64,000 nt of DNA, taken from Spirochaetota bacterium. GTDB taxonomy: Bacteria; Spirochaetota; UBA6919; CBDBPB01. The stretch covers positions 64,001 to 128,000 of the forward strand of contig CBDBPB010000003.1 of the NCBI GenBank assembly GCA_965208615.1, in the 5' to 3' direction. Positions 12,646 to 56,357 of the stretch are shown here, piece by piece; the first letter of the stretch is position 1, and each line of letters starts with the position of its first letter. The notes beneath the pieces are model-generated. The model saw only the letters and a program-made list of their open reading frames with translations. It made no database searches and was not told where the DNA came from. A program made the position numbers and the translations under genes.

Positions 12646-13464
12646 TTATTTCAACTTCTTTAGTTTAATATCCACTCTTCTAAGGGCTGTCTTTATCTTA
12701 GCCGAATAACCCTTACTAAGATTATCCGAAAAACTTTTACTAATATCTTTTAAATATTTATTATAATCCTTTTTAGCATCATTAAGAACACTTATAGCCT
12801 TATCCTTTTGATTAAGCTTTAAATAAGACATAGCCATATACTCTTTTACTAAACCCTTAGACTCCATAGCCAAAGGAAAAATATAAGAGTTAGCATATTT
12901 TGTGATAACACTATTATAACTTATATATGCAGTCTTATATGACTTCAATGCTTTATCATACTCACCTTTAATATAATGGTTATAACCTATATTTAAAAAA
13001 CCATTAGCCATGTTATATAAAGCCTCACCAGCAAATATAAAACCTTTTTCCTCAGAAGCCTTATTAAAGTATTCATTAGCTTTGTCATAATCCTTAAGTG
13101 AATAGTAAACTATTCCCATATTATATTGGGATAAATAACTATATATACTATTATCAGATACCTTAAGAAGGTTTTCAAATCCACTTTTCATCTTAGCTAT
13201 ATTCTTTTCATCAAAATATATTTTATCATCTTTCTTTGCTATATTATCAGTTTTATTAATAAGATCCTTTGTTGTAGCATCATAATATAAATTAGCCAGC
13301 TTAATATTCTGTCCTTTTGAATAAAAAACAAAAATAACTACCATGATAATAAGCAAAAGTACTGTAGAAAGTCCTGTTAGAACTAATTTTCTATTTTTCT
13401 CGATCCATGCAAGAGCCTTATTAGAAAACTCTATAAAAAAATCATGTTTTTCTTTCTTTGTCAT
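12646..13464 (-). CDS. Membrane-anchored TPR protein (YfgM-like architecture)
   Basis: One N-terminal TM helix after WIEKN, followed by TPR-like repeats such as YNMGIVYYSLKDYDKANEYF. Confidence 0.7.
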   Translation of the reverse strand: MTKKEKHDFFIEFSNKALAWIEKNRKLVLTGLSTVLLLIIMVVIFVFYSKGQNIKLANLYYDATTKDLINKTDNIAKKDDKIYFDEKNIAKMKSGFENLLKVSDNSIYSYLSQYNMGIVYYSLKDYDKANEYFNKASEEKGFIFAGEALYNMANGFLNIGYNHYIKGEYDKALKSYKTAYISYNSVITKYANSYIFPLAMESKGLVKEYMAMSYLKLNQKDKAISVLNDAKKDYNKYLKDISKSFSDNLSKGYSAKIKTALRRVDIKLKKLK

Positions 13465-13467
13465 AGT

Positions 13468-15273
13468 CTATTCCAGAGGATTATTTTTAAGTTTATCAAA
13501 GTCGATCAAATCACCAAGGGTAACCTTAGAACTATCCGAAGAGCTTTTACTATACTTTTCTATTGCCATTTGCTCAATCCTTCTTTCATACTCTTTCTTA
13601 CTAAGGGATATCTGTTGCTTTTTTATATCCACTTTTATAACAGAGCAGTCAACTACATCACCTATATTATATATATTTTCAACAGCCTCATCTCTTTTTT
13701 TCAGCATTTCGGATACATGTAAAAATCCATCAATATTATTTTCTATTTCAATAAAAATACCTATCTCTACAATTTTATTGATCTTACCCTTTATAATACT
13801 CCCTTTAGGATGGTTAGCTTTAAATATCTCCCATGGATTATCCAAAAGTTGTTTTAATCCTAAAGAAATTATTTGTTTTTCTTTATCAGTCTTAAGAATA
13901 ATGACATCTATTTTTTGTCCTTTTTTAAAACGCTTATCCTTTTTAAGATTGGTAATAGGCTTTTTTGTCCAATCAATATCTTTTACACGAAGAAGACCTG
14001 TAAGTTCATCATCTATCTCAATAAAAACACCAAAGTCAGTTACTGCTCTAATTACTCCTTCTATCTTTTTTCCTTCTGGATATTTTTCATAAACAAAATC
14101 CCATGGATTATCCAATATCTGCTTTAGACCAAGGGATAACTTACGATTTTCTTTGTCCATATCCAATATTGATGCTTGTATATGTTCACCCACTTTCAGT
14201 ATCTGTTTTGGATGAGATATTTTTTTAGTCCATGAAAGTTCATTTACATGGAGTAGTCCTTCAATACCGTCCTTAACCCTTACAAAAGCTCCATAGTCTG
14301 CGAGTTTAACTACTTCTCCAGAAATAACATCATTATTTTTATATTCTCTACTAAATACTTCCCATGGATCTTCACTAAGCTGCTTAATCCCAAGAGTAAC
14401 TTTTTGTTGATCTATATCGATTTTTAGTATTTTTACCTCTAACTCAATACCTTCAGAAATGTAATCACGACAATTACGTAAATGACTCCATGAAACCTCT
14501 TTAATTGGAATAAATCCATCAATGGCTCCAAGATCAACAAAGGCTCCGTAATCCAAAACATTTTTTACTTTTCCAGATATAATATCCCCTTCCTTGTTGG
14601 AGTTAAAGAACTTATCTTTTTCTATAGCTATTTTTTCCTCTAAGAACTCTCTTCTGGATAAGACTATATTATTCTTTTCAGCATCATATTTTGCAATTTT
14701 AAAGTCAAATGTTTTATTAATATATTCTTTTGGATTAGATACCCGTCGTACATCTAATTGAGAACCGGGTAAGAAAGCCTCAACTCTTCCACTCATCCCA
14801 ACAACATAGCCACCTTTTATTTCCTTTAAAATTTTTCCTTTAATAGGCATCTTTTCATCAAAGTTTTTGGCAATCAGTTTTTTAGTATCCACCTCATCAG
14901 CTTTTTCCTTACTAAGAATAACGTTACCATGGGCATCTTCTCTTGTTATAACCATGACTCTAACTTCATCACCAACCTTTACAGGAGAGTTAAACTCATC
15001 AGCATCAACCTTACCCTCAGACTTATACCCTACATCAATAAATATCTGATTTCCTTGGATATTGGCAACCTTACCATTAATAATGTCGCCATTTTTTAGC
15101 TCAGTAAATGACTTTTCATACATTTCTTCAAAAGATTCCATATCTATATTATTAAGCGCTCCTGTATCGAATGATTTTCTGTCTTCTTTAATAGACTTTT
15201 TTTTATTATGTCCTTCACCTATAGAACCCTCTTTCTTTTGAACAATAACAATTTTTTTCTTATCTTCCGCCAT
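13468..15273 (-). CDS. rpsA: 30S ribosomal protein S1
   Basis: Six S1 domains: IDVGYKSEG, AFLPGS, DYGAFVDLG, EGLLHVNELSW and recurring SLGLKQ. Confidence 0.97.
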   Translation of the reverse strand: MAEDKKKIVIVQKKEGSIGEGHNKKKSIKEDRKSFDTGALNNIDMESFEEMYEKSFTELKNGDIINGKVANIQGNQIFIDVGYKSEGKVDADEFNSPVKVGDEVRVMVITREDAHGNVILSKEKADEVDTKKLIAKNFDEKMPIKGKILKEIKGGYVVGMSGRVEAFLPGSQLDVRRVSNPKEYINKTFDFKIAKYDAEKNNIVLSRREFLEEKIAIEKDKFFNSNKEGDIISGKVKNVLDYGAFVDLGAIDGFIPIKEVSWSHLRNCRDYISEGIELEVKILKIDIDQQKVTLGIKQLSEDPWEVFSREYKNNDVISGEVVKLADYGAFVRVKDGIEGLLHVNELSWTKKISHPKQILKVGEHIQASILDMDKENRKLSLGLKQILDNPWDFVYEKYPEGKKIEGVIRAVTDFGVFIEIDDELTGLLRVKDIDWTKKPITNLKKDKRFKKGQKIDVIILKTDKEKQIISLGLKQLLDNPWEIFKANHPKGSIIKGKINKIVEIGIFIEIENNIDGFLHVSEMLKKRDEAVENIYNIGDVVDCSVIKVDIKKQQISLSKKEYERRIEQMAIEKYSKSSSDSSKVTLGDLIDFDKLKNNPLE

Positions 15274-32118: not shown

Positions 32119-35100
32119 TTATATCCTCTTCATATACTTGGACTTCTTAAAGCAAATAATAAATTCAGTTCCCTTATCTCTTTTACATGTAATACTACCA
32201 TGGAGTTGCTTTTCAACGAGGTTAGTAACAAGTTTTAATCCTAGAGAATTACTATTTCTAAAATCTAAATCTTTAGGCAGTCCCACACCGTTATCATTAA
32301 CGATAAGTTGAACCTCATCTTCGGATAATAAATGAAAGTCGACTAAAACATTTCCCTTTAGGTCATTAGGGAATGCATGCTTCATAGCATTAGATATTAA
32401 CTCACTAATTATAAGTCCACTGGGAATAGCAATATCAATTTCTAAATATATATGTTCCACATTAATATCCAAAGCCACCTTACCAGGGCTAATATCATAA
32501 AAACCAAACATCTCATTTCCAAGGTCTTTAATGTAGTCATGAAAGTCTATATTAGCTAAATCCTTAGACTGATAAAGCTTTTCATGGACTAAAGACATAG
32601 CCTCAATACGGTTTTCACTATCTTTAAACATATCCACATGCTCTTTATCCTTAATATAGTCTGATTGGAACTTTAAAAGGCTAATAATAATTTGAAGATT
32701 ATTTTTTACTCTATGATGAATTTCTCTCATAAGAAGTTCTTTTTCTTTTAGTGATGCTTTTATTTTATCCTCATTATTTTTTCTTTCGGTAATATCAGTA
32801 AAAGAGGTAACCACTGCATATGGATTTTTTGATTTACCCTTAAAAAGAGGTTTAGAATTAACAGATATCCATTTTAATACCTTATCGGGCCTATTAATGC
32901 CCATAACTACATTAAATTTAGCCTTACCTGTTTTCAAACAAGTTATACTGGGATGCTCTTCTTTTTTAAGACTTTCTCCATCTTCTTTAATAATGTTTAG
33001 TTTGTTATGGAAAAACTCATCCATTTTATCATAGCTAAGACCTAATATCTTTTCAGAACTTTTATTACATGTTTGTATAGCTCCACTAGCCTTCTGGAAA
33101 ATAATGCCCTCAGACATAGAAGTTATAATTGTATGATAACGATTTTCACTTTCTAGCAAGGCCTCTTCAGCTTTTACTCGTTGTTTTTCACTTTTATAGG
33201 CTTCAATGATATTTGAACACATAATTATGTATGGTTGTATAAAGTTTATAGTTTGTTTATCATAGCCATCTTTTTTATTCGCTAGAACACAAACACCCAA
33301 TACTTTTTCTCCGCGTAAAATAGGCAGTAAAATAAAAGAGGTAATCTTAGGATGTCCTTGTGGGAAGGCATTATTTATATCTTTTTCCAGCGGATTATTA
33401 TAAATTAGAGGATTAGTGGTTAATACAACGTTACCAAAAAGGTTATCCAAGTTATGGAACTCAAATTCATCAGTAATGGCTTTTTGATTAAGTTTTTCAG
33501 TTTTTCTATTCCTAATGCTGTTTGTAATAGCAATACTTTTTAAAAAAGGTTTGTTATTTTCTGTATAAAGGAGTTCTACAATAAAACCGTAAAAACTTTT
33601 TGTTAGGGATATAAGGTTAGTTAACAAATCATTAAAGAGTTCCCACGGATTAGAGCTAGTAATAAATTGTGCCTGAGTTCTATTGATTACATCTAATAAG
33701 GCATGACTATTCTCTAATTCTTCAGTCATGCGTTTACTAATGGTAATATCCCTTGCTACAGCATAAATAAGCCCTTCTTCTGTATAGGGAGCCGCAGTAA
33801 ATGCTAACCACTTGTATGAGCCGTCCTTACAAATAAATCTGGCTTCTAAATATCTTACTGGTTCTCCATTAGATAACTTTCTTAATGAAAAAGTCATTGT
33901 AGTAATATCCCCTGTATGTATGAAATCGGTTAGGGGACTGGACATTAGCTCTGATTCTGACATACCAACTATTTTTTCAAATGCGGGATTTATACGTTTT
34001 ATATAGCTATCTATGCCTATAATACAGAGCATATCCAATGAGAGATTAAAAAACCTATCTCTTTCTTCTTCGGCCTGTTTACGTTTGGTAATATCGTGTA
34101 GGGATACAATATAGGCTGGTTTATTTTCCCAAAAGGTTTCTACTGATTTGGCGTCCACCACAGATAAGGATGTATCTTTTTTTATAACGTTTAGTTCGAG
34201 TCCGCCGAAATAAGACGGGATACCAACAGATTTTCCTATCATTTTATTTGGTTGTTGCTGGAATATGTTTTCGGTAGCTGGATTAGCAAATAATATTCTT
34301 CCTTCTTTGTTCAGGACTAATATACCATCTGTAGTGGTATTAAGTATTACTCTATATTTTTCTTCACTTCTTTTAAGGGCAACAGCGGCTTCTTCACGTT
34401 CGGTAACATCCCTAAAACTGCTTCTATAGCCTAACCACTTATTATTACTATCATAGATAGACTGGTATGAAGCGGCTAACCATCTTATGCTGTTATTTTT
34501 ACGTCTTATTCTAAAGACCATTTCGCTTGCGGATGCACCATTTAATGCCTCAGTAAATGCCCTATTCATTTTAGGCTGATCCTCATGATAGATAATAGAG
34601 ATAGGAAAGTCTTTCATATTTTTGCATTCTACTGTATTATAGCCGGTAATGCGTTCTACTGCTTTATTTATCCAGACTAGTCTACCATTAGGATAAACCC
34701 ATATTTCCATATCATAGGTATAGTCAGCTATAGCTCTAAATCGTTTTTCACTTTCTCTCAATGCATTTTCTGATCGTTTACGTTCTCTTATTTCGATTTT
34801 GAGCTGATCAACGGTTTTTATAAGGCCTATAGTTCTATCTTTAACAAGATCTTCTAGTTTATTTTGATATTCTGTAAACTTTTTTTCAATATCTTTTCTT
34901 TCCAGCACTTCTTGGGTTAGTTTTTTGTTTGAATCAACTAATTCTGTGGTACGTTCTTTAATTCGCTCTTCTAGTTCATCACGCACTTTTTTTAACGCCT
35001 CAGATGCTTCTCTACTGCTGGTTACATCCAACATATACCCTTCATAGTTAACAACTTCACCACTATTATTACGATTTACTATTATAAAGCTATATATCCA

Positions 35101-35622
35101 TCTAGTAGTTTTATTTGGTAAAACTATTCTATAATCCTGTTCAAAAGTGTTTTCCGACCTACTATAGTTTATCATACCAGAGGTAATTTTTTTAAAGTCG
35201 TTGGGACATATAATATCCGAATATTTTATTTTATTACTAATTAGCTCTTCTGCCTTATAACCGAACTGATCAATATTTGCCGATATATATTCTATTAGCC
35301 AATTATCTTTATTATTATAGAGCTTAAATCTTATTACTGGTCCTTCTATAAAGAGTTTTTCGTTTATCATATTCTTTTTATCAGCTATAGAAGGTTGTTT
35401 AGGGCTAAGGCGGTCTATTTTTAATAACATTTTTTTAATAAAAAGGGATATGCCAATAGAAATCGTTAAAACTGATAATCTTAAGCATAGCTCTATAACA
35501 GCGGGATATATAATTTCATTTAGGAGGGGTTTACCACTAATAGAATAGCTTATTAACGAATCAATGATCCAATAAGCTAATCCGAGTATAATCCCAGCAA
35601 TGGGGATAATAATATTTTTCAT
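32119..35622 (-). CDS. Multi-PAS/GAF sensor histidine kinase (HisKA_2/HWE-like)
   Basis: Two N-terminal TM helices, about five PAS domains, a GAF domain (PQGHP), EIHHRVKNNLQII H-box, ELISNAMKHAF and DNGVG. Confidence 0.93.
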   Translation of the reverse strand: MKNIIIPIAGIILGLAYWIIDSLISYSISGKPLLNEIIYPAVIELCLRLSVLTISIGISLFIKKMLLKIDRLSPKQPSIADKKNMINEKLFIEGPVIRFKLYNNKDNWLIEYISANIDQFGYKAEELISNKIKYSDIICPNDFKKITSGMINYSRSENTFEQDYRIVLPNKTTRWIYSFIIVNRNNSGEVVNYEGYMLDVTSSREASEALKKVRDELEERIKERTTELVDSNKKLTQEVLERKDIEKKFTEYQNKLEDLVKDRTIGLIKTVDQLKIEIRERKRSENALRESEKRFRAIADYTYDMEIWVYPNGRLVWINKAVERITGYNTVECKNMKDFPISIIYHEDQPKMNRAFTEALNGASASEMVFRIRRKNNSIRWLAASYQSIYDSNNKWLGYRSSFRDVTEREEAAVALKRSEEKYRVILNTTTDGILVLNKEGRILFANPATENIFQQQPNKMIGKSVGIPSYFGGLELNVIKKDTSLSVVDAKSVETFWENKPAYIVSLHDITKRKQAEEERDRFFNLSLDMLCIIGIDSYIKRINPAFEKIVGMSESELMSSPLTDFIHTGDITTMTFSLRKLSNGEPVRYLEARFICKDGSYKWLAFTAAPYTEEGLIYAVARDITISKRMTEELENSHALLDVINRTQAQFITSSNPWELFNDLLTNLISLTKSFYGFIVELLYTENNKPFLKSIAITNSIRNRKTEKLNQKAITDEFEFHNLDNLFGNVVLTTNPLIYNNPLEKDINNAFPQGHPKITSFILLPILRGEKVLGVCVLANKKDGYDKQTINFIQPYIIMCSNIIEAYKSEKQRVKAEEALLESENRYHTIITSMSEGIIFQKASGAIQTCNKSSEKILGLSYDKMDEFFHNKLNIIKEDGESLKKEEHPSITCLKTGKAKFNVVMGINRPDKVLKWISVNSKPLFKGKSKNPYAVVTSFTDITERKNNEDKIKASLKEKELLMREIHHRVKNNLQIIISLLKFQSDYIKDKEHVDMFKDSENRIEAMSLVHEKLYQSKDLANIDFHDYIKDLGNEMFGFYDISPGKVALDINVEHIYLEIDIAIPSGLIISELISNAMKHAFPNDLKGNVLVDFHLLSEDEVQLIVNDNGVGLPKDLDFRNSNSLGLKLVTNLVEKQLHGSITCKRDKGTEFIICFKKSKYMKRI

Positions 35623-35899: not shown

Positions 35900-38221
35900 T
35901 TAGCATTTTGTTACTTTATTTATATTCTCAATAGCATCCTTTAAATCGGTAAATGTTTTTTTATCCGTAACCTTAATATGATTTATCAACCAGCTTTCTA
36001 AGAAAATAAGAACCTCAATCGATAAGTTCACCTCGCCTTTACTAAAATATTCCTTAAACTCCAGCACTTTCTTAGTAAACTCATCATGTTGTTTTTTGTG
36101 TTCATCGTAACCAGAATAATCAAGCTTTTTAATTAATTTTTCTTCATATGAAAAATGAATAACTGTATAATCAAATAGCTCGTTTAATATCTTCTCCATA
36201 ACTCCAAAACCTTTACCAACAACCATATTACTATAAAGCTCATTTATTAGATTTATAAGTCTTATATGCTGGCTATCAACGGACTGTACATCGGTTACTA
36301 AATCGCTATTCCATTTAACTAAGCTATCTACTTTTTTATCTTTAAGTTCTTCTTTTTCATAGAAATCTATTTTCTTTTTATCCTTAGGTACAACTTTTGA
36401 AGTCTTTTCCTCTTCTTTAACTTTAAAACTTGATATTTCATTATTTAGCATACTAATATTAGTACTATTTATAGAACCAAGTTTTGCAAGGCTTAAAACA
36501 GAGCCTTTCATATCATTACTAGTTTTTGTAATCTTCTCTACCGTTGATAATCCTTTAAAGGATGCATTAGTTATCCTTTTCAAAGCATCACTACTTTCCG
36601 AAATAGAAATCTTCATTTCTATGGTATCAAATTTTACCTCTTCTGTAATGGATTGTAAATCAGAAACAATAGCCAATATACTACTAGTCTCATTACTAAG
36701 GTTGTCCATATTGGTGGATACTACATCAAAAGCCTGTGAAACCTCATTAACTTCGTTATTAACCTCTAAAAAAGCATCCCTACTTTCATGGCTTAGCTTT
36801 GTAACAAGCTTAATTTTCTCTACACTAGAATTTAATGTTTCACTTATACTCTTAACATTGGTTGCAGTAGATGTTGCTAGTTTCCTTATCTCATCAGCTA
36901 CAACGGCAAATCCTTTACCTGAATCTCCAGCATGAGCCGCTTCTATAGCTGCATTCATAGCAAGAAGATTAGTTTTAGTGGCAATGTCATTAATAATTTT
37001 AATCATTTCGAGCATATCTTCAGAGTTTTTTGATATATCCAAAATAAGATTATTGGTTTCTTTAATTTTCTCTCCACCAATATAAGTTCTCTCAATCAGC
37101 TGGCTTGTTGCTTCACGCTTCTCTTTTGAGATCTTTGCAACATCCTCAATAAATTTAACCAGTTGAGTTATTGAGTTAGAAGACTGCTTTACAACTTTAC
37201 CTTGCTTAATAATCTCTTTTGGTAAATGTTTAAAGCTTTCAAAGTTTTTATCCGTAACCTCAGACAGCTTACTAATATTTTCTGCCAATGACTTAAAAAG
37301 ATTATTTACAAAAACAATACTATTACTAATCTCTATTAAAGAAGCTGATGTTTTCTCACTATTCTCGGATAATAACTCTCCAATTTTTTGTCCCTCTATT
37401 AATACATGTTTAATCCTTACTATAATAGCTGTTAGTTTATCCATAAAAAGATCAAAGTAATTAGAAAGTAAGCCAATTTCGTCTTTATAAGGATAGTCAA
37501 TCTTATTAGTTAGATCTCCTTCTCCTTCCGAGATGTTCTTTAATATTTTAGTAGTTTTTCTAATTGGATTAACAACATAATAAACAATAATAAAAAGACT
37601 ATAAGCCGTTACAAATAGTATTAGGATTATAAAAGAGACCAAAACTCGCCTATTAATTAGGTTTACAACACCTGTAAAATCACTAGAGGATTGTTGATTC
37701 ATATCATTATAGACCTTTCTTAGGCTTTCGAAAACCTTGATAGGCTCTTGATCTTCCAAAGTAAGCTGATCAAGTATTTCCTTAGAGGTTTTTTGATTGT
37801 AGATTAAGGTTTTCGTTAATTCTATTTTATCCCTATAATAAAGTACGATTTTCTTTATTTTATTTAGTATATCTAATTCCTTTTTAGTTATACTATTATG
37901 GCTCGAATACTGTTTTAAATCTTTTGTAAAGTTAGTTACCTCTACCTCAAAGCGCTTTTTATGTTTATTATCCTTTGTCAGAATGTAGTTATAAAAGTGG
38001 TATATAAAACTATCATAAAAAAAATAGCTTTTGAGTTGACTAAAACTACTTTTTCTTACTTCAACTTCTCTTTGCTTCTCCCAGATAGAAACAGCTTGAT
38101 TTAATCTATCATAAAGCAAAAACCACATTCCAATAAGAATACCTGCATTAAAAATAGTCAGCAATATAACCTTTTTATATATCTTTATATTTTTAAACCA
38201 ATTAAACATATACTTCCTCAC
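35900..38221 (-). CDS. Methyl-accepting chemotaxis protein with C-terminal hemerythrin domain
   Basis: TM-periplasmic-TM-HAMP, [31 protein letters not shown] and hemerythrin ligands DSQH, HFSYEE, HKKQH, NHIKVTD. Confidence 0.93.
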
Positions 38222-49775: not shown

Positions 49776-50312
49776 ATGGTAAAAAAGCTATACGACCGCC
49801 TTGAGGCTAAGTTAGGGGATATTACCAAAGAAAAATGTGATGCCATAGTAAATGCCGCTAACTCATCCCTAACTGGAGGAGGAGGTGTAGATGGGGCTAT
49901 CCACTCTGTAGGAGGAATAGAAATACTAAGGGAATGCAGAGAAATTAGAAAAACACAATATCCCAATGGATTACCAACAGGTGAAGCCGTAATTACTGGT
50001 AGTGGCAAGCTAAAAACTAAATACGTTATACATACAGTTGGACCTATATGGAGTGGTGGAAAATTATCAGAAAAAGAACTTTTAGAAAATTGTTATAATA
50101 ATTCCCTTGAGTTAGCGGTTAAGCATAAAATAAGAACAATAGCCTTTCCATCAATATCAACTGGTATATACGGCTACCCTATGGATAAAGCCGCTAAAGT
50201 CGCTTACAAAACGGTTATAGAGTTTTTATCCAAAAACAGTTTTATTGATCTGGTAACCCTAGTCTTTTTTAGTCAACAGGATATGGATGTATTTTTAGAA
50301 GCTATAACCTAA
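49776..50312 (+). CDS. Macro-domain O-acetyl-ADP-ribose deacetylase (YmdB-like)
   Basis: GDIT, AIVNAAN, GGGGVDGAIH, VIHTVGP and ISTGIYGYP. Confidence 0.94.
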   Translation: MVKKLYDRLEAKLGDITKEKCDAIVNAANSSLTGGGGVDGAIHSVGGIEILRECREIRKTQYPNGLPTGEAVITGSGKLKTKYVIHTVGPIWSGGKLSEKELLENCYNNSLELAVKHKIRTIAFPSISTGIYGYPMDKAAKVAYKTVIEFLSKNSFIDLVTLVFFSQQDMDVFLEAIT

Positions 50313-50338
50313 CCTTTATAAATAAGCTAAATTAAACT

Positions 50339-50695
50339 ATGAAAAAACAAATGATTTTAAGAGTAAAAGAAAAGTTCGACTCAGCCCATAAATTGAACGA
50401 CTATCATGGTAAATGCTCTAATCTACACGGACATACATGGCAAGTGGAAGTTTATATTAAAATAAAAGAAATTCAACCTAATGGAATTAGTATAAAGTTT
50501 GAAGAGATTAAATCTTTCCTAAAAGACTTTTTACCAGACCATCAATACCTTAATGATTATCTTAATATGCACTACCCTACTGCAGAGAATCTTGTTATAC
50601 ATTTATTTAATGGAATAAAAAAACGCTATGAAAACCTTTTAAAGGTCGTCCTTTGGGAGACTGAACAAAATGGAGTCGAATATTCAGAAGTATAA
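50339..50695 (+). CDS. queD: 6-carboxytetrahydropterin synthase
   Basis: FDSAH, CSNLHGHTW, PTAEN and LWET. Confidence 0.92.
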   Translation: MKKQMILRVKEKFDSAHKLNDYHGKCSNLHGHTWQVEVYIKIKEIQPNGISIKFEEIKSFLKDFLPDHQYLNDYLNMHYPTAENLVIHLFNGIKKRYENLLKVVLWETEQNGVEYSEV

Positions 50696-51248
50696 TATAA
50701 CGAATATATTTTACTCCATACAGGGTGAGGGCTTTCATAGCGGAAAGCCAGCTATTTTTATAAGGTTTTCCCAGTGCAATTTAAAGTGTAGGTTTTGTGA
50801 TGAGCCATCCCAACCTACAGTAGAATATGATAGTAAAAAAATTATTAGTAAAATAAATAAATTTAGTCCATGTAAGTTTGTTGTATTAACCGGAGGAGAA
50901 CCCAGTATACAGTCAGGATTAGAACAGCTTATTACTAAGCTAAAGAAAAATGATTTTTTTGTATCTGTAGAGACCAACGGTACGAATATAATAAAAGGCT
51001 ATCCTGATTGGATAACCGTATCTCCTAAAACAGATGATTTTTACTATGGGGATGAGTTAAAACTTGTTTATGATAAACAAAATATAAAGGAGTTTGAGCA
51101 TCTTCCATTTAAGCATTTTTATATTCAGCCTATGAATCTTGAAAAAGATATTGATTTTACGTCTTTAGGAAAATGTATTAAGTTAGTTAAAGATAATCCG
51201 AAGTGGAAACTGTCTATTCAGCTTCATAAGTTTTTAAGGATTAGTTAA
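50670..51248 (+). CDS. queE: 7-carboxy-7-deazaguanine synthase (radical SAM)
   Basis: IFYSIQGEG, CNLKCRFCD, LTGGEP, VETNG, VSPK and QLHK. Confidence 0.93.
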   Translation: MESNIQKYNITNIFYSIQGEGFHSGKPAIFIRFSQCNLKCRFCDEPSQPTVEYDSKKIISKINKFSPCKFVVLTGGEPSIQSGLEQLITKLKKNDFFVSVETNGTNIIKGYPDWITVSPKTDDFYYGDELKLVYDKQNIKEFEHLPFKHFYIQPMNLEKDIDFTSLGKCIKLVKDNPKWKLSIQLHKFLRIS

Positions 51249-51307: not shown

Positions 51308-52315
51308 ATGAAAGAAATTGCTATTATAGGAGCAGGTAGTTTTAGTATGGCTCTTGCTCATCTTCTTAGTAATAAAGGCCATAAAATAACAATATGGTCT
51401 CATAGTACTGATATTGCTGAGTACATTAACAAAAATCATAAAAACCCAGTCTTTCTTAAGGATGTTAAACTACCTTCTAATAAGGTAAAGGCAGTTACAT
51501 CCCTAAGTGAGGTATTAGATAAGCCATTTTTATTAATTGCTATTCCAACACAGTTTATTAGGGATACTTTATCCAAGGTTAATATTAATAGCAAAACTAT
51601 TATTATTAACTGTGCTAAAGGTATTGAAACTAACTCTCTCAAAACTATATCTGAGGTATTAGAAGAAATATTCCCTTTTGAGTATCATAATAATTTTGCT
51701 TTTATATCTGGTCCAAGTTTTGCTTTGGAGCTTGCTAAAAAACAGCTTACAGCGGTCAGTGTTGCAAGTAAAAGTCAAAAAGTTAGTACTATAGTACAAA
51801 AGCTGTTTTCTACTAAATATTTAAGGGTATATACTAGCCATGACATAATAGGTATAGAGGTTTGCGGCTCTCTAAAAAACGTTATAGCCATAGCTTCTGG
51901 AATAGTTGATGGTCTTGGATTAGGACATAATACAAGAGCGGCATTAATTACCAGAGGACTAGCGGAAATAACCAGACTGGGTATAAAAAAAGGAGCTAAT
52001 CCGCTAACATTTTTAGGACTTGCTGGTATAGGAGACCTCGTATTGACTTGTACAGGGGATCTTAGTAGAAATAGACATGTGGGAGTTGAATTAGCATCAG
52101 GTAAATCGCTATCTCAAATACTCTCAGAAATGACTATGATTGCAGAGGGTGTTAAAACTACTGAGTCTGCATATGAATTATCAAAACAGTTAAAAGTTGA
52201 AATGCCAATAATAGAACAAATGTATCAAATATTATACCATAATAAATCACCAAAAAAAGCTGTGGAAGAACTAATGACCAGACATCTAAAACCAGAAATA
52301 GACTTTATTAATTAA
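51308..52315 (+). CDS. gpsA: NAD(P)H-dependent glycerol-3-phosphate dehydrogenase
   Basis: IGAGSF, KGIE, SGPSFA, LKNVIAIA, GDLVLTC and SRNR. Confidence 0.96.
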   Translation: MKEIAIIGAGSFSMALAHLLSNKGHKITIWSHSTDIAEYINKNHKNPVFLKDVKLPSNKVKAVTSLSEVLDKPFLLIAIPTQFIRDTLSKVNINSKTIIINCAKGIETNSLKTISEVLEEIFPFEYHNNFAFISGPSFALELAKKQLTAVSVASKSQKVSTIVQKLFSTKYLRVYTSHDIIGIEVCGSLKNVIAIASGIVDGLGLGHNTRAALITRGLAEITRLGIKKGANPLTFLGLAGIGDLVLTCTGDLSRNRHVGVELASGKSLSQILSEMTMIAEGVKTTESAYELSKQLKVEMPIIEQMYQILYHNKSPKKAVEELMTRHLKPEIDFIN

Positions 52316-53087
52316 TCTCTAAATAAATAGGACAATGATCAGAACCCATAACCTCATTGAGGTGTCCAACGTTTTTTATCCTATTAACTAAATCGGGACT
52401 TATAAAAAAATAGTCTATTCTCCATCCAATATTACGATTTCTTGCCATAGACCTGTAAGACCACCAACTATAACTATCACTTATATGAGGATTAAAATGC
52501 CTAAATACGTCAACATATCCCTCGGATATGATTTTATCAAGTTCTTTTCGCTCAACAGGTAAAAAACCAATATTATTTTCATTTTCTTTTGGTCTGGCAA
52601 TGTCCATTTCAGTATGAGCAATATTATAGTCCCCACAAGCAATGATACTTTTTCCAGTAGCCCTTAAGGAATTTAGGTGAGATAAAAAATATTCATAAAA
52701 CTTAAGCTTTTTAGAAAGAACATCCTCCTCCCCTACTCTAGGATTACCATTAGGAAAATATATATTCAATAAAACAAAATCATCATATTCAGTTTGTATT
52801 ATTCTACCATCTTCTTTAAATATATCCACCGTTTTATTAAATTCATAACAAACAGATATAGACTCCATTTTAGAATATGTAACAACACCAGCATAACCCT
52901 TTTTCAATCCATTATGCCAATAACTATGATAGCCATGAGGACGCTGTAAAGCTTTGTCAAGCTGATTAGAAAATGCTTTTACCTCCTGTAGGCAGATAAT
53001 ATCACCATCTACTTTATCGAACCAATCAAGAAAACCTTTTTTAACAACAGCTCTAATACCATTGACATTCCAAGAGTAAATCTTCAT
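52308..53087 (-). CDS. xth: Exodeoxyribonuclease III
   Basis: SWNVNGIRA, LQEVK, GDYNIAH, YSWWSYR, GWRIDY and SDHCP. Confidence 0.96.
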   Translation of the reverse strand: MKIYSWNVNGIRAVVKKGFLDWFDKVDGDIICLQEVKAFSNQLDKALQRPHGYHSYWHNGLKKGYAGVVTYSKMESISVCYEFNKTVDIFKEDGRIIQTEYDDFVLLNIYFPNGNPRVGEEDVLSKKLKFYEYFLSHLNSLRATGKSIIACGDYNIAHTEMDIARPKENENNIGFLPVERKELDKIISEGYVDVFRHFNPHISDSYSWWSYRSMARNRNIGWRIDYFFISPDLVNRIKNVGHLNEVMGSDHCPIYLEIN

Positions 53088-53159: not shown

Positions 53160-54497
53160 TTAAAATACTAAATCAGAAGGAATCTTTCTTTTTTCCATTT
53201 CATCCATCAATACTTTTGCCTCATCAAAGTTAGTAATCATACTACGAAGCAAGCTATAGGTCATAATATTAGGCGGTATACCTTGTTTTTCCATTTCTAT
53301 TGTAATATTCTTTGCTTCTTTATAATCGGGAGCTTTATCAAGAATAGTGTAATATATATTCAAATTTGGATGTATGTTATTGTTAGCCATATTATTAAGT
53401 AGCTCTTTTCCTTCTTGATAACTAGGAGCCATAGAAATTAAATTACTATATATTGAGGTATTAGGCTTAATATGCTTTTCTAATAGCTCATCCAAAAGAG
53501 ATCTGGCATTATAATAGCTAGATGATTTAGTAATTAGCAAGTTATAGGTATGAGCATTGGGAATATTATTATTTTTCTCCATTTCTCTTAGCCAATATCT
53601 CCCAGTGTTATAGTCGGCTGACTTATCAATTAAAAGGTTATATGTACGAGTAGTAGGCAAAAGATCGCTTTCTTTGATCTGATTAGCAAATCTTACACTA
53701 GTATTATAATCTGGTATACTTTCTATTAGATGATTCCACTTTTTTACCAATAATTTTTTATCAATATTAACTCTTTTTGCCAAGTCAACAAACATATCAG
53801 TGGCATGCTCTGATAGTCTAATAGCCTCTTCAGTTCTCCCTATGGTATACATAGTATATATAAACCAGTCAGGATATTCAAGGTCTTCACGGATTTCTGG
53901 TTTAATATCCTTTAGTGTATGTATATCAAGATCTTCTTCCATTTTTTTACAAAGGCCTTCATTTTTTCTATCTAAAAGGTTTATAGCCTCAAAATCAAAA
54001 TCTCTAACTACAGTTCTAAGAACGTTATAGTCAACAATAACCTCATTAGTTCTACAGCATCCAGCGGCTCTAACAGATTTTCTTGCACTATCCCCAACCC
54101 AATGTTTACTATGATCCGGCAGGCTGACACACATATCTATTCCAGAGTCTATAGCAATCCTTAAAGGAGATATAGACTTTTTACTAAGACCAGTATAGTT
54201 TGCCATTTCCTCCTGGAATTTATGAGCCATAATAGTTGCCAAACAACAAATAGCAGGTATTTTTCTTTCTTTACTGGTCATAACAAGCCATCCATCACCT
54301 GTAAACTGTATAATAGCATCATCCAGTGATAGTTTTCTAATATGAGGTACAATTTGTTTAACTAAATATTTATTAAACTTATTTTGTTCTTGTATAGTTC
54401 GTTTAATAGCGGCCTCTGTTGACTTAATCATATCAATGCTTAAACAATAGATTACACCTATCCAGCCTTCTTCTTGGGAATAATCAATACGCTTCAT
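53160..54497 (-). CDS. Class III nucleotide cyclase domain fused to PPR-like helical repeats
   Basis: Cyclase motifs SIDMIKST, FTGDGW, LRIAIDSG, WVGDSARKSVR and NEVIV, plus six 32-aa repeats of type TYNLLI...EM...I.PN. Confidence 0.8.
   Translation of the reverse strand: MKRIDYSQEEGWIGVIYCLSIDMIKSTEAAIKRTIQEQNKFNKYLVKQIVPHIRKLSLDDAIIQFTGDGWLVMTSKERKIPAICCLATIMAHKFQEEMANYTGLSKKSISPLRIAIDSGIDMCVSLPDHSKHWVGDSARKSVRAAGCCRTNEVIVDYNVLRTVVRDFDFEAINLLDRKNEGLCKKMEEDLDIHTLKDIKPEIREDLEYPDWFIYTMYTIGRTEEAIRLSEHATDMFVDLAKRVNIDKKLLVKKWNHLIESIPDYNTSVRFANQIKESDLLPTTRTYNLLIDKSADYNTGRYWLREMEKNNNIPNAHTYNLLITKSSSYYNARSLLDELLEKHIKPNTSIYSNLISMAPSYQEGKELLNNMANNNIHPNLNIYYTILDKAPDYKEAKNITIEMEKQGIPPNIMTYSLLRSMITNFDEAKVLMDEMEKRKIPSDLVF
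53172..53747 (-). repeat. Six tandem 32-aa PPR-like protein repeats (aa 251-442)
   Basis: Aromatic anchors W254, Y286, Y318, Y350, Y382 and Y414 are spaced exactly 32 aa apart. Confidence 0.8.
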
Positions 54498-54740
54498 TTT
54501 AAGTAAGACCTCAGATAATCTAATTTTAAAAAAGCTATAACTATAAATTATAGCTTGTTAACACAATATTATTTAACCTTAAAACGGTTATGATAAACAA
54601 ATCTAATAATAAATACAAGATAAGAATTCTCAAGTAGATAATATATAAAGGCCTAACAGAAATATTCATTATCTTTTACTATATAAGTAAAGCTAAAACA
54701 GATAAATAAACTAATATATTATATAGATTGCCAAAAAAAA

Positions 54741-56357
54741 CTAAGCGTGTTCAATATCACAGTGTTGGGATATCTCATTACTAAGGGTAAAGATATCAGT
54801 TTTATTTAGTAGGTGAACATCGTTTTTACCATTAATTCTGGCAATATTTTTAAGTTCCTCTTTTGTGGCATTATAAAAGTTTACAAATCTTTTTGTAGAC
54901 TCTTCTATACTAAACCGTTTTCGTAATTCGTTATCCTGAGTGGCAATTCCAACAGGACACCTACCAGTATGACATATCCTATACTGCTGACAGCCTATTG
55001 ATATCATGGATGCAGTTGCTAAAGCAATAGCATCAGCACCCAAAGCTAAAGCTTTTGCAATATCACTACTATCCCTAAATCCACCAGTAACACATAGACT
55101 AACCTTTGAGCCTATATCATCCATATACCTACGAGCACGGGATATAGCAAAAATAGGCGGTAGACAAACATTATCCTTAATATAATTAGGAGCAGAACCA
55201 GTACCACCACCACGACAGTCAATAGTTATAAAATCAGGATTTAAACTCAAAACTCTTTCTAAGTCTTTTTCAATATGTCCTGCGGAAAACTTAATGCCAA
55301 TAGGCTTAGGAGTTAATTTTCTTAAGTTGTCCATTTTGTGTTTTAAGTCGTCCAAACAATTAATTCCCTTATGTCTTCCTGGAGCAATAAAGTCACTATT
55401 TTTAGGGATACCTCTTATTAGTGCAATATCATCAGTAATTTTTTCTTTTGATAAGTGTCCACCCATACCGGGTTTTGCCGCCTGACCAATTTTAATCTCT
55501 ATTGCATTTGCTTTTATAATAGCGTTTTCGTTATAAGAAAATGGAGCAGTACCTAATTCATAAACATATATATTAGCATTTTCTTGTTCTTCGGGCAGCA
55601 TTCCCCCTTCACCAGAGCATATCATTGTACCAACAAGGCTAGAACCTTTAGCCATAGCAATTTTAGCCTCTTTTGATAGTGCACCATAAGACATGTGGGA
55701 TACATAAAAAGGTATATCCAATATTAAAGGATACTTACTACTTTTTCCGATAACAGTTTTGGTATTGACTGCTTCATCAGCGTTTAGAGGCATTCTATAA
55801 AGCTGGGCTCCCTTAAATAAAATGTAACTCCAATTAGGAAAGGGTTTTTTTGTTCCCATAGGAGTAGTTTCAGAAGTAGATCCCTTAGCCAGACTTTGTA
55901 TTTTTGCATAGTTAGGCTCAAGATCATCTTTATACCTAGCCCAATCCTCCAGATACTCATTGCTATGCCTATTCTCAGACAACAGATTTTTATCCTTAGG
56001 GATTAGGGATACATAAACATCATCACCATTTATCTTAATATCATAGGCGTCAACGCCATCATCATAACCAGGAGGAGCATCGCCAGTAAAAGGATCAAAC
56101 TCATACTGATGCCATGGACATACAACATATCCATTTTCAATATTCCCATCAGCTAAAGGCCCATCCTGATGAGAACATACACTAGATATAGCACCTAATT
56201 GTCCTTTGTACTTAAAGATAGCAATTTCTTTATTATTTAGTACAAACTTTTTACCTTTTCCTTCTTCAAAGTCGCTAACTTTAGCAAGATAAATAAAATT
56301 ATCAAGTTTATCCAAGCTGTTTGAGGCATCTTTATTAGAGGGTTTATCATTGGTCAT
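54741..56357 (-). CDS. Rieske domain fused to an FMN-binding glutamate synthase-like domain
   Basis: CSHQDGPL...CPWHQYEFD, then MSYGALS, SGEGG, EIKIGQAAKPGMGGHL, GGTG, KALALGAD and CQQYRICHTGRCPVGIATQ. Confidence 0.9.
   Translation of the reverse strand: MTNDKPSNKDASNSLDKLDNFIYLAKVSDFEEGKGKKFVLNNKEIAIFKYKGQLGAISSVCSHQDGPLADGNIENGYVVCPWHQYEFDPFTGDAPPGYDDGVDAYDIKINGDDVYVSLIPKDKNLLSENRHSNEYLEDWARYKDDLEPNYAKIQSLAKGSTSETTPMGTKKPFPNWSYILFKGAQLYRMPLNADEAVNTKTVIGKSSKYPLILDIPFYVSHMSYGALSKEAKIAMAKGSSLVGTMICSGEGGMLPEEQENANIYVYELGTAPFSYNENAIIKANAIEIKIGQAAKPGMGGHLSKEKITDDIALIRGIPKNSDFIAPGRHKGINCLDDLKHKMDNLRKLTPKPIGIKFSAGHIEKDLERVLSLNPDFITIDCRGGGTGSAPNYIKDNVCLPPIFAISRARRYMDDIGSKVSLCVTGGFRDSSDIAKALALGADAIALATASMISIGCQQYRICHTGRCPVGIATQDNELRKRFSIEESTKRFVNFYNATKEELKNIARINGKNDVHLLNKTDIFTLSNEISQHCDIEHA

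Follow-up and report, generated by a model that had tools for sequence, protein, structure and literature searches.

A putative class III cyclase-fold domain joined to a 32-residue pentatricopeptide repeat array in bacteria and archaea: a candidate RNA-gated signalling enzyme

We examined a 64,000-nucleotide stretch of contig CBDBPB010000003.1 (forward-strand positions 64,001 to 128,000; GenBank assembly GCA_965208615.1, Spirochaetota bacterium), called the window throughout, and within it a single gene whose product joins a class III-type nucleotide cyclase domain to an array of pentatricopeptide repeats (PPRs). An original prediction, made from the letters of the window, had placed this gene alone between xth and a glutamate synthase-like gene, and had described its product as a cyclase followed by six PPR-like repeats, with no transmembrane helix or signal peptide. 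The open reading frame (ORF) list of the window confirmed the gene as described, at 53160..54497 on the reverse strand with an ATG start, and the 445-residue product was matched exactly in the protein collection (P0001). As its highest mean Kyte-Doolittle hydropathy over 19 residues was only 1.24, the protein is soluble, with no transmembrane helix or signal peptide apparent, in agreement with the prediction. The neighbours had also been named correctly: xth is identified on one side by its TIGR00633 match, and the gene on the other side encodes a Rieske plus GltB-like protein. All three genes lie on the same, reverse strand (Table 1).

Table 1. Features of the cyclase-PPR gene and its surroundings, in window coordinates (aa, amino acids; AF2, AlphaFold2; pLDDT, predicted local distance difference test; counts out of 54 refer to alignment A2, described in the text).
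Feature	Position	Strand	Basis
Whole gene: cyclase-fold domain, helical linker and six PPR repeats; 445 aa plus stop	53160..54497	-	ORF list; AF2 pLDDT 91.7
Class III nucleotide-cyclase-fold domain, aa 13-200	53898..54461	-	Foldseek, family profile, PADLOC PycC, ESM Atlas
D22, first metal-binding Asp; motif IDMIKST (family IDLIGST)	54432..54434	-	54/54
Q64, base-specifying Lys position, four residues before the metal Asp	54306..54308	-	K in 52/54 family members
D68, second metal-binding Asp; FTGDGW	54294..54296	-	54/54; HMMER aligns FtGDGWL to RhoGC TIGDAYL
H132, second base-specifying position	54102..54104	-	D in 48, E in 4, H in 2 of 54
R139 (Arg in place of the transition-state Asn) to R143 (conserved catalytic Arg)	54069..54083	-	R139 54/54, R143 53/54
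Linker, aa 201-250, two helices (209-218, 222-240)	53748..53897	-	DSSP on the AF2 model
Six 32-aa PPR repeats, aa 251-442	53172..53747	-	Pfam PPR_2/PPR_3, designer PPR structures, Foldseek
Exodeoxyribonuclease III (xth), adjoining the cyclase-PPR gene	52308..53087	-	Profile match (TIGR00633, 303 bits)
Rieske plus glutamate-synthase-like (GltB-like) protein, upstream neighbour	54741..56357	-	Profile match
Promoter-like site TTGAGA-16-TATTAT, 10/12 consensus matches	54606..54633	-	Consensus scan only; not evidence of function

The identity of the C-terminal repeats was supported by several comparisons. The window protein matched Pfam PPR_2 at 61.4 bits (cut-off 30), PPR_3 at 51.0 bits (cut-off 25) and the NCBIfam PPR model TIGR00756 at 31.4 bits (cut-off 20), and no tetratricopeptide repeat (TPR) model matched it at E<=10; in the comparison of PPR with TPR profiles that had been proposed as a check, the repeats therefore score as PPR. 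A phmmer search of the Protein Data Bank (PDB) returned designed PPR proteins at E=1.2e-32 to 2e-31 over aa ~260-444, together with maize PPR10 at E=1.8e-18. The AF2 model, built from a 25-sequence alignment (pLDDT 91.7; predicted template-modelling score 0.83), contains six helix pairs across aa 247-436, and a Foldseek search with this model placed designer PPR proteins at the top, several of them as RNA complexes (5orm, E=4.5e-9). The six repeats predicted at aa 251-442 are thus borne out, with one correction to the repeat length. The repeats begin at 251, 283, 315, 347, 379 and 411, and this 32-residue period, rather than the canonical 35, was also found in 355 complete repeats of the wider family; the three residues by which each repeat falls short of the canonical motif are lost at the end of helix A. 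Matches to PPR_2 in the 2.46-Mb host genome were confined to this gene, and none of 14 control genomes matched.

Foldseek aligned the N-terminal domain with a large number of solved catalytic domains from adenylyl and guanylyl cyclases at target-normalised template-modelling scores of 0.7-0.82 (probability 1.00), including 7yz9 (0.79), 6aoa (0.82) and 3r5g (0.78). A GGDEF or polymerase palm identity was rejected, as all non-PPR matches among the best 50 were adenylyl or guanylyl cyclases. A profile of 54 N-terminal domains from the family (alignment A2, which excludes L051, L054, L055 and L056 for stops, truncation or a poor end) had class III cyclases as its best PDB matches, at E=0.01-1.6 (best 0.01-0.08), and in ESM Atlas the clusters nearest to aa 1-205 were Guanylate_cyc proteins of ~210 residues (score 0.97, 184 shared features). 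PADLOC models of PycC, the Pycsar cyclase, matched the window protein (PDLC02369, E=1.4e-6; PDLC00763, E=1.9e-4); at E<=0.01 PDLC02369 matched 16 of the 54 family domains and PDLC00763 one. Apart from PycC, the profile library gave no sequence match to the domain. No solved PycC was found among the PDB matches of the N-domain profile at E<=10. A homodimer model of two N-domain copies made with A2 scored 0.40, against a mark of 0.42 and controls of 0.00, and we counted it neither way. As modelled, the N-terminal domain is a divergent branch of the class III cyclase fold.

Conservation of active-site residues across the 54 domains pointed in the same direction. D22, G67, D68, G69, W70, G135, S137 and R139 are invariant in all 54, and the G-S-T loop that follows D22, in a motif which by inspection we take to be the equivalent of the class III 'DIxGFT', is nearly so (S26 in 52, T27 in 53). 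HMMER aligned vGdSaRravRa with vGDTVNTASRM of rhodopsin-guanylyl cyclase, which places R143 at the catalytic Arg position and R139 at the position of the ribose-holding Asn. The D22, D68 and R143 motifs singled out in the original prediction are accordingly conserved throughout or, for R143, in all members but one. In class III enzymes, whose active-site residues have well-known roles, a Lys/Asp pair specifies ATP and a Glu/Cys pair GTP. Presumably position 64 corresponds to the first residue of this pair, from its spacing of four residues before the metal Asp, as in class III cyclases; the register of position 132 was set by the conserved G-D-S-x-R-x-x-x-R motif, not by HMMER's own gapped alignment. 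The pair is K/D in 48 members, K/E in four and Q/H in two, the latter being the window protein and a spirochaete relative (L001), and in alignment A1 all six short-form proteins likewise carry Q and H, neither of the canonical pairs. Such a correlated change from K/D to Q/H is expected if the base of a nucleoside triphosphate (NTP) is bound at these positions, and it suggests that the NTP used by the window clade is not that of most other members.

The gene belongs to a rare family. A word-indexed search with the whole protein gave 4690 candidates, of which 29 passed E<=1e-3. When 1.84 billion cluster representatives were searched exhaustively by phmmer, with aa 1-200 as the query, 148 passed E<=1e-3, of which 123 were also within 1e-10 and 53 within 1e-30. 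Among 170 family proteins gathered, 107 are at least 330 aa long; 97 of these carry at least one detectable 32-residue repeat, 93 at least two, and the maximum is 17. The architecture search that had been suggested for cyclase plus PPR thus recovered this combination in most of the longer proteins. Pattern matching across 185,579 species genomes picked out 260 stretches; 58 of these encoded a relative, corresponding to 57 loci. Carriers among the bacteria are Armatimonadota, Chloroflexota/Dehalococcoidia, Acidimicrobiia, Planctomycetota, Ignavibacteriota, Bacteroidota, Acidobacteriota, Elusimicrobiota, Verrucomicrobiota, Thermodesulfobacteriota and Spirochaetia, and among the archaea Ca. Argoarchaeum, Methanophagales, Methanotrichaceae and Micrarchaeota. 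Occurrence is sparse, at 2 of 41 genomes among the relatives of the window (its own included) and 5 of 81 sampled genomes from the phylum of the Armatimonadota carrier. A scan of viral contigs with A2 gave 19 pattern matches and no relative.

A quick maximum-likelihood tree of the 54 domains contains both lineage clades (17 Armatimonadota, SH-aLRT support 99; five Acidimicrobiia, 100) and cross-phylum pairs, such as Acidobacteriota with Fidelibacterota on short branches. The window protein and L001 pair beside two archaeal proteins (support 81), and the cyclase-PPR gene is the only gene that the contig of L001, the closest relative, shares with the window. The two members of the Acidobacteriota-Fidelibacterota pair, L017 (Pyrinomonadaceae) and L037 (from a Fidelibacterota metagenome-assembled genome, or MAG), are nearly identical (branches 0.097 and 0.14; SH-aLRT 100), reflecting either a transfer between phyla in the very recent past or an error of binning.

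Departures from the usual architecture were sought by a Pfam scan of 7 of the 10 repeat-less proteins, together with P0014, P0151 and P0159. P0146 joins the N-terminal domain to FG-GAP instead of PPR repeats, P0151 to leucine-rich repeats (LRR) plus FG-GAP, and P0088 and P0122 to NUDIX domains (24.9 and 23.9 bits; cut-off 21.1); these rare fusions may show what the N-terminal domain does. P0055 has a weak APH match, P0139 weak TPR matches, and P0159 a HEAT-repeat match that looks spurious. The long-form protein P0014 extends some 130 aa beyond its TPR-like C-terminal cap, a region that matched nothing in Pfam and could be a fused effector.

The repeats carry the residues through which PPR proteins read RNA. 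In the PPR code, reportedly established by Barkan in 2012 and Yin in 2013, the residues at position 5 and at the last position of a repeat specify the base: ND reads U, NN C or U, SN and TN A, and SD and TD G. In the 355 complete family repeats, positions 3, 4, 7 and 31 are almost fixed, position 5 is N in 223, S in 98 and T in 20, and the last position is N in 164 and D in 135. The local hidden Markov model (HMM) aligned a good many repeats incompletely, and these were left out of the pair counts (N- 72, S- 23, -- 22, and others); of the 346 resolved pairs, 322 are canonical (ND 120, NN 100, SN 62, SD 24, TN 10, TD 6). Across 11 proteins whose repeats are at least 60% mutually identical, positions 5 and 32 are the most variable of the 32, at 0.50 each, while in P0103, one of the three most repetitive proteins, both are invariant. 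The canonical code residues found family-wide support base-specific binding of single-stranded nucleic acid, as judged from sequence.

Decoded targets would vary widely from member to member, with UAAUYYUU, YUUUUG and UGYGUGA as examples, and we dropped the decoding of a target common to the family for this reason. The pairs of the window protein (NT, NN, NN, SN, YN, SD) decode as ?YYA?G, a 6-nucleotide degenerate site with which a genome search would be uninformative. Its five closest relatives (49% identity) keep the six repeats and the conserved C-terminal end. P0007, P0011, P0016 and P0018 have identical N-termini, yet carry 5 to 8 repeats with differing code pairs, which could reflect either fast repeat turnover or short-read collapse of near-identical 96-nucleotide repeats.

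The reading we favour, to which we give slightly less than an even chance, is that of a cyclase gated by single-stranded RNA, or possibly single-stranded DNA. The class III-type domain would be the output of a soluble, stand-alone signalling enzyme and the 32-residue PPR array its sensor, recognising a short single-stranded RNA (single-stranded DNA being less likely) through the code positions. Active sites of class III cyclases form across a dimer, and because the enzyme is of class III, dimerisation would be the most economical mechanism of activation: with target RNA on the array, two cyclase domains would be brought into contact or set free, and the cyclase so switched on would convert an NTP to a cyclic nucleotide and pyrophosphate. 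Most members have the ATP-type Lys/Asp pair, and the substrate may differ in the Gln/His spirochaete clade of the window. The gene would be an accessory, horizontally mobile single-gene module. In the host genome its product could feed abundant proteins that bind cyclic nucleoside monophosphates (cNMPs), a class of receptor not visible in many other carriers. This design of output enzyme plus sensor array fits the almost invariable fusion of a conserved, probably catalytic domain to a variable, code-using PPR array, and also the rare members that swap the PPRs for FG-GAP or LRR arrays. We infer RNA binding, gating, product and physiological role alike.

A number of results weigh against this reading. 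The ribose-binding, transition-state Asn is replaced by Arg in all 54 members, so the chemistry of the domain may differ from that of known cyclases. Pfam Guanylate_cyc (PF00211), the profile named in the original prediction as the check on its cyclase domain, gave no match to the window protein at E<=10 and none to the 54 family domains at E<=1; the class III fold of that prediction stands, through AF2 and Foldseek, and the Pfam match it anticipated does not. On the side of the sensor, the repeat HMM was seeded on N, S or T at position 5 and P at position 31, which biases the code counts somewhat, and the margin in variability is small (0.50 at positions 5 and 32, against 0.46 and 0.42 at surface positions). 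Differences in repeat number among near-identical proteins could be assembly artefacts. In the window protein itself four of the six pairs are canonical (NN, NN, SN and SD; not NT or YN), and its five nearest relatives frequently carry Q, H, K, I, D or G at position 5. The long forms are thus better supported as RNA readers than the window protein itself.

Genomic context adds to these objections. When ORFs within 10 kb of 58 loci were clustered, the largest neighbour family occurred at 5 of the 58, and no neighbour is conserved. Among 85 ORFs immediately flanking 45 loci (11 loci were left out where a simple ORF caller missed the FTGDGW motif within one ORF), the most frequent Pfam family, TPR, accounted for three. 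In ten other carrier genomes, cNMP_binding was found in none of five archaea and three of five bacteria, leaving 7 of 10 without it, and Guanylate_cyc in one of five archaea and one of five bacteria. These carriers are MAGs of unstated completeness, in which absence is unproven, though one that lacks both domains is a 4.6-Mb single chromosome. The host genome itself has 10 cNMP_binding and 8 Guanylate_cyc matches, an unusually dense cNMP repertoire for 2.46 Mb. With the Asn missing and receptors not found in many carriers, other explanations stay alive.

A more far-reaching reading, which we regard as unlikely, is that of a reprogrammable, protein-encoded RNA sensor that may be its own effector. 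Each member would read a different short RNA and respond through its cyclase, and on meeting a foreign transcript from a phage or plasmid it might drain ATP or another NTP, as a single-gene form of abortive immunity. Code-bearing PPR arrays would on this reading be native to bacteria and archaea, with a bearing on the origin of eukaryotic PPRs. The enzyme could act in this way because no receptor or effector is linked to it and many carriers are without cNMP-binding domains. The broader connection to Pycsar and defence drawn in the original prediction proved weak, with one PycC model matching 16 of 54 domains, no adjacent effector and no defence island. The neighbourhoods of homologs, examined as had been proposed, yielded neither defence islands nor cNMP-binding effectors: there is no cNMP-binding, TIR or nuclease theme among the Pfam families listed for these 85 ORFs, 3 of the 85 match any PADLOC model at E<=1e-5, and no defence island was seen at the loci, where immediate neighbours were scanned, or in the housekeeping surroundings of the window gene (gpsA, xth, AddA-like). 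For a role in conflict or defence speak the sporadic distribution, inter-phylum transfer, variable arrays and PycC-like signal; against it, the lack of effectors and defence neighbours and the existence of lineage-wide clades.

It is equally unlikely, in our judgement, that the repeats form a protein- or ligand-binding solenoid which, like the TPR modules found in other cyclases of bacteria, couples a sensor to the cyclase and reads no RNA. Most long forms end in a conserved TPR-like domain of ~140 aa (motif around 'ALRLxLDYPHL'), which the short-form clade of the window lacks; that clade has several non-canonical residues at position 5; the PPR region of the window protein has an isoelectric point of 6.5; and two family members bear the JGI label 'class 3 adenylate cyclase/TPR repeat protein'. 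Such a solenoid is hard to square with repeats that score as PPR and not TPR and that match RNA-binding designer PPRs at E~1e-32, or with code pairs of which 322 of 346 are canonical, at positions that are the most variable among near-identical repeats.

Rather improbable is a third explanation, that the array guides a palm-type two-metal enzyme to RNA and that the N-terminal domain acts on the RNA itself, by nucleotidyl transfer, tailing or sensing of a 5' triphosphate, with no free cNMP released. In PPR-DYW, PRORP and PPR-SMR proteins the second domain does act on the bound RNA, and the Arg found in 54 of 54 members in place of the ribose-binding Asn, the 7 of 10 carriers in which no cNMP-binding domain was found and the want of a conserved partner gene would all suit such an enzyme. 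Yet the residues that specify the base, like the triphosphate and metal motifs, resemble those of a cyclase acting on free NTP, the rare relatives pair the same domain with FG-GAP or LRR arrays, which do not bind RNA, and we know of no precedent for RNA-directed chemistry in the class III fold. Finally, a pseudo-cyclase, serving as the dimerisation or nucleotide-sensing module of an RNA-binding regulator, would account for the lost transition-state Asn, the absent Pfam match and the further loss of the K/D pair in the window clade, and is very unlikely given metal Asp, catalytic Arg and G-S-T loop residues that show few exceptions or none across phyla and domains, which would be unexpected after loss of catalysis.

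The gene sits in an ordinary bacterial setting. The host genome (2.46 Mb in 9 contigs, 99.4% complete) encodes a DNA polymerase I at most 61% identical to any entry of the protein collection, its named matches being MAGs of uncultured Spirochaetota and Leptospirales, and the host is therefore an uncultured, deep-branching spirochaete. Glycerol-3-phosphate dehydrogenase (gpsA), a PAS protein and an AddA-like helicase are encoded nearby, and the GC content at the locus (0.28-0.35) is no different from that of the flanks. Eukaryotic contamination was rejected, as the gene lies in a 99.4%-complete bacterial genome among bacterial housekeeping neighbours and with GC like its surroundings. Legionella and Ralstonia were the sources of the first-noted bacterial PPR proteins. 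A secreted, eukaryote-like effector, considered on that account, was provisionally set aside, since neither a signal peptide nor a secretion context was seen and the hosts are free-living MAG lineages and archaea. The 243-bp intergenic gap upstream contains the promoter-like site of Table 1, from a scan that found 19 sites against 10.4 expected; a terminator-like site was looked for at the gene and none was found. No RNA sequencing run holding the window stretch was listed in a run search, in which one DNA-type run held it and may be the sample it came from.

Elsewhere in the window, 35900-38221 (-) encodes a methyl-accepting chemotaxis protein of 773 aa whose C-terminal domain is a bacteriohemerythrin (NF033749, 130 bits), a likely O2- or iron-sensing chemoreceptor, and 32119-35622 (-) a 1167-aa multi-PAS sensor histidine kinase, whose four PAS S-box stretches total 218 bits. 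By eye only, 49776-51248 (+) reads as a macro-domain protein (49776-50312), a QueD-like protein (50339-50695) and a radical-SAM, QueE-like protein (50670-51248). The 249-aa ORF at 13343-14092 (+) falls almost wholly within a 601-aa ORF at 13468-15273 (-) and is probably a spurious shadow ORF.

PPR proteins count as an invention of eukaryotes, in essence, and of their organelles. A 2010 genome paper counted only 12 in bacteria (PMC2824747). The present family, by comparison, is a coherent set of PPR proteins with canonical code residues in more than a dozen bacterial phyla and several archaeal lineages, and it offers hypotheses on the origin of PPRs something concrete for testing. Should the arrays bind RNA, as their residues suggest, the family would supply the first cyclase with an RNA-sequence input read by protein repeats, and a third coupling of nucleic-acid recognition to nucleotide signalling, beside the guide RNAs of type III CRISPR and the structure-sensing CD-NTases. 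The natural 32-residue repeat further gives designers of RNA-binding proteins a new scaffold, and the cyclase output would give a compact RNA-to-cAMP reporter. The original prediction knew of no characterised example, and the full-text literature searched gave no description of a cyclase-PPR fusion in prokaryotes, though supplementary architecture tables could still hold one.

With known sensor-bearing class III cyclases (CyaC, Rv1625c, CyaB, rhodopsin-guanylyl cyclase) the family has in common the catalytic fold, both metal Asp and the catalytic Arg, as well as the logic of joining a sensor domain to a cyclase; 48 of its 54 aligned members also have the Lys/Asp pair. It differs from them in having no PF00211 match, an Arg for the ribose-binding Asn, PPRs as the sensor and the cyclase at the N-terminus, and the window protein differs further in its Q/H pair. 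Mycobacterial multidomain cyclases with TPR modules, such as Rv0386, likewise have helical repeats behind an N-terminal cyclase, and in Rv0386 Gln/Asn replaces Lys/Asp, a substitution reminiscent of Q64/H132; unlike Rv0386, the window protein has no ATPase or HTH domains, and its repeats are PPR, not TPR.

Pycsar PycC is likewise a small, soluble class III-type cyclase, described as having two conserved metal Asp and unusual specificity residues (PMC11224242), and its profile matches the window protein at E=1.4e-6. PycC, however, carries no PPR array, and the window family has no adjacent PycTM or PycTIR effector, conserved neighbour or defence context; on effector and context the window gene falls outside Pycsar. 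With organellar and designer PPR proteins (dPPR, cPPR) the array shares the helix-turn-helix superhelix, N, S or T at position 5 and N or D at the last position. It departs from eukaryotic PPRs in its 32-residue period, in its prokaryotic and archaeal hosts and in a cyclase partner rather than DYW, NYN or SMR. Plant S motifs are close to the 32-residue repeat in length.

In type III CRISPR Cas10 and the RNA-activated CD-NTases, recognition of RNA triggers two-metal synthesis of a cyclic nucleotide. In the cyclase-PPR family, recognition would lie in protein repeats rather than in a guide RNA, the product would presumably be a 3',5'-cNMP rather than an oligoadenylate, and there is no co-encoded effector. 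These systems nevertheless provide the nearest functional analogy, and the family would work like them without being a member.

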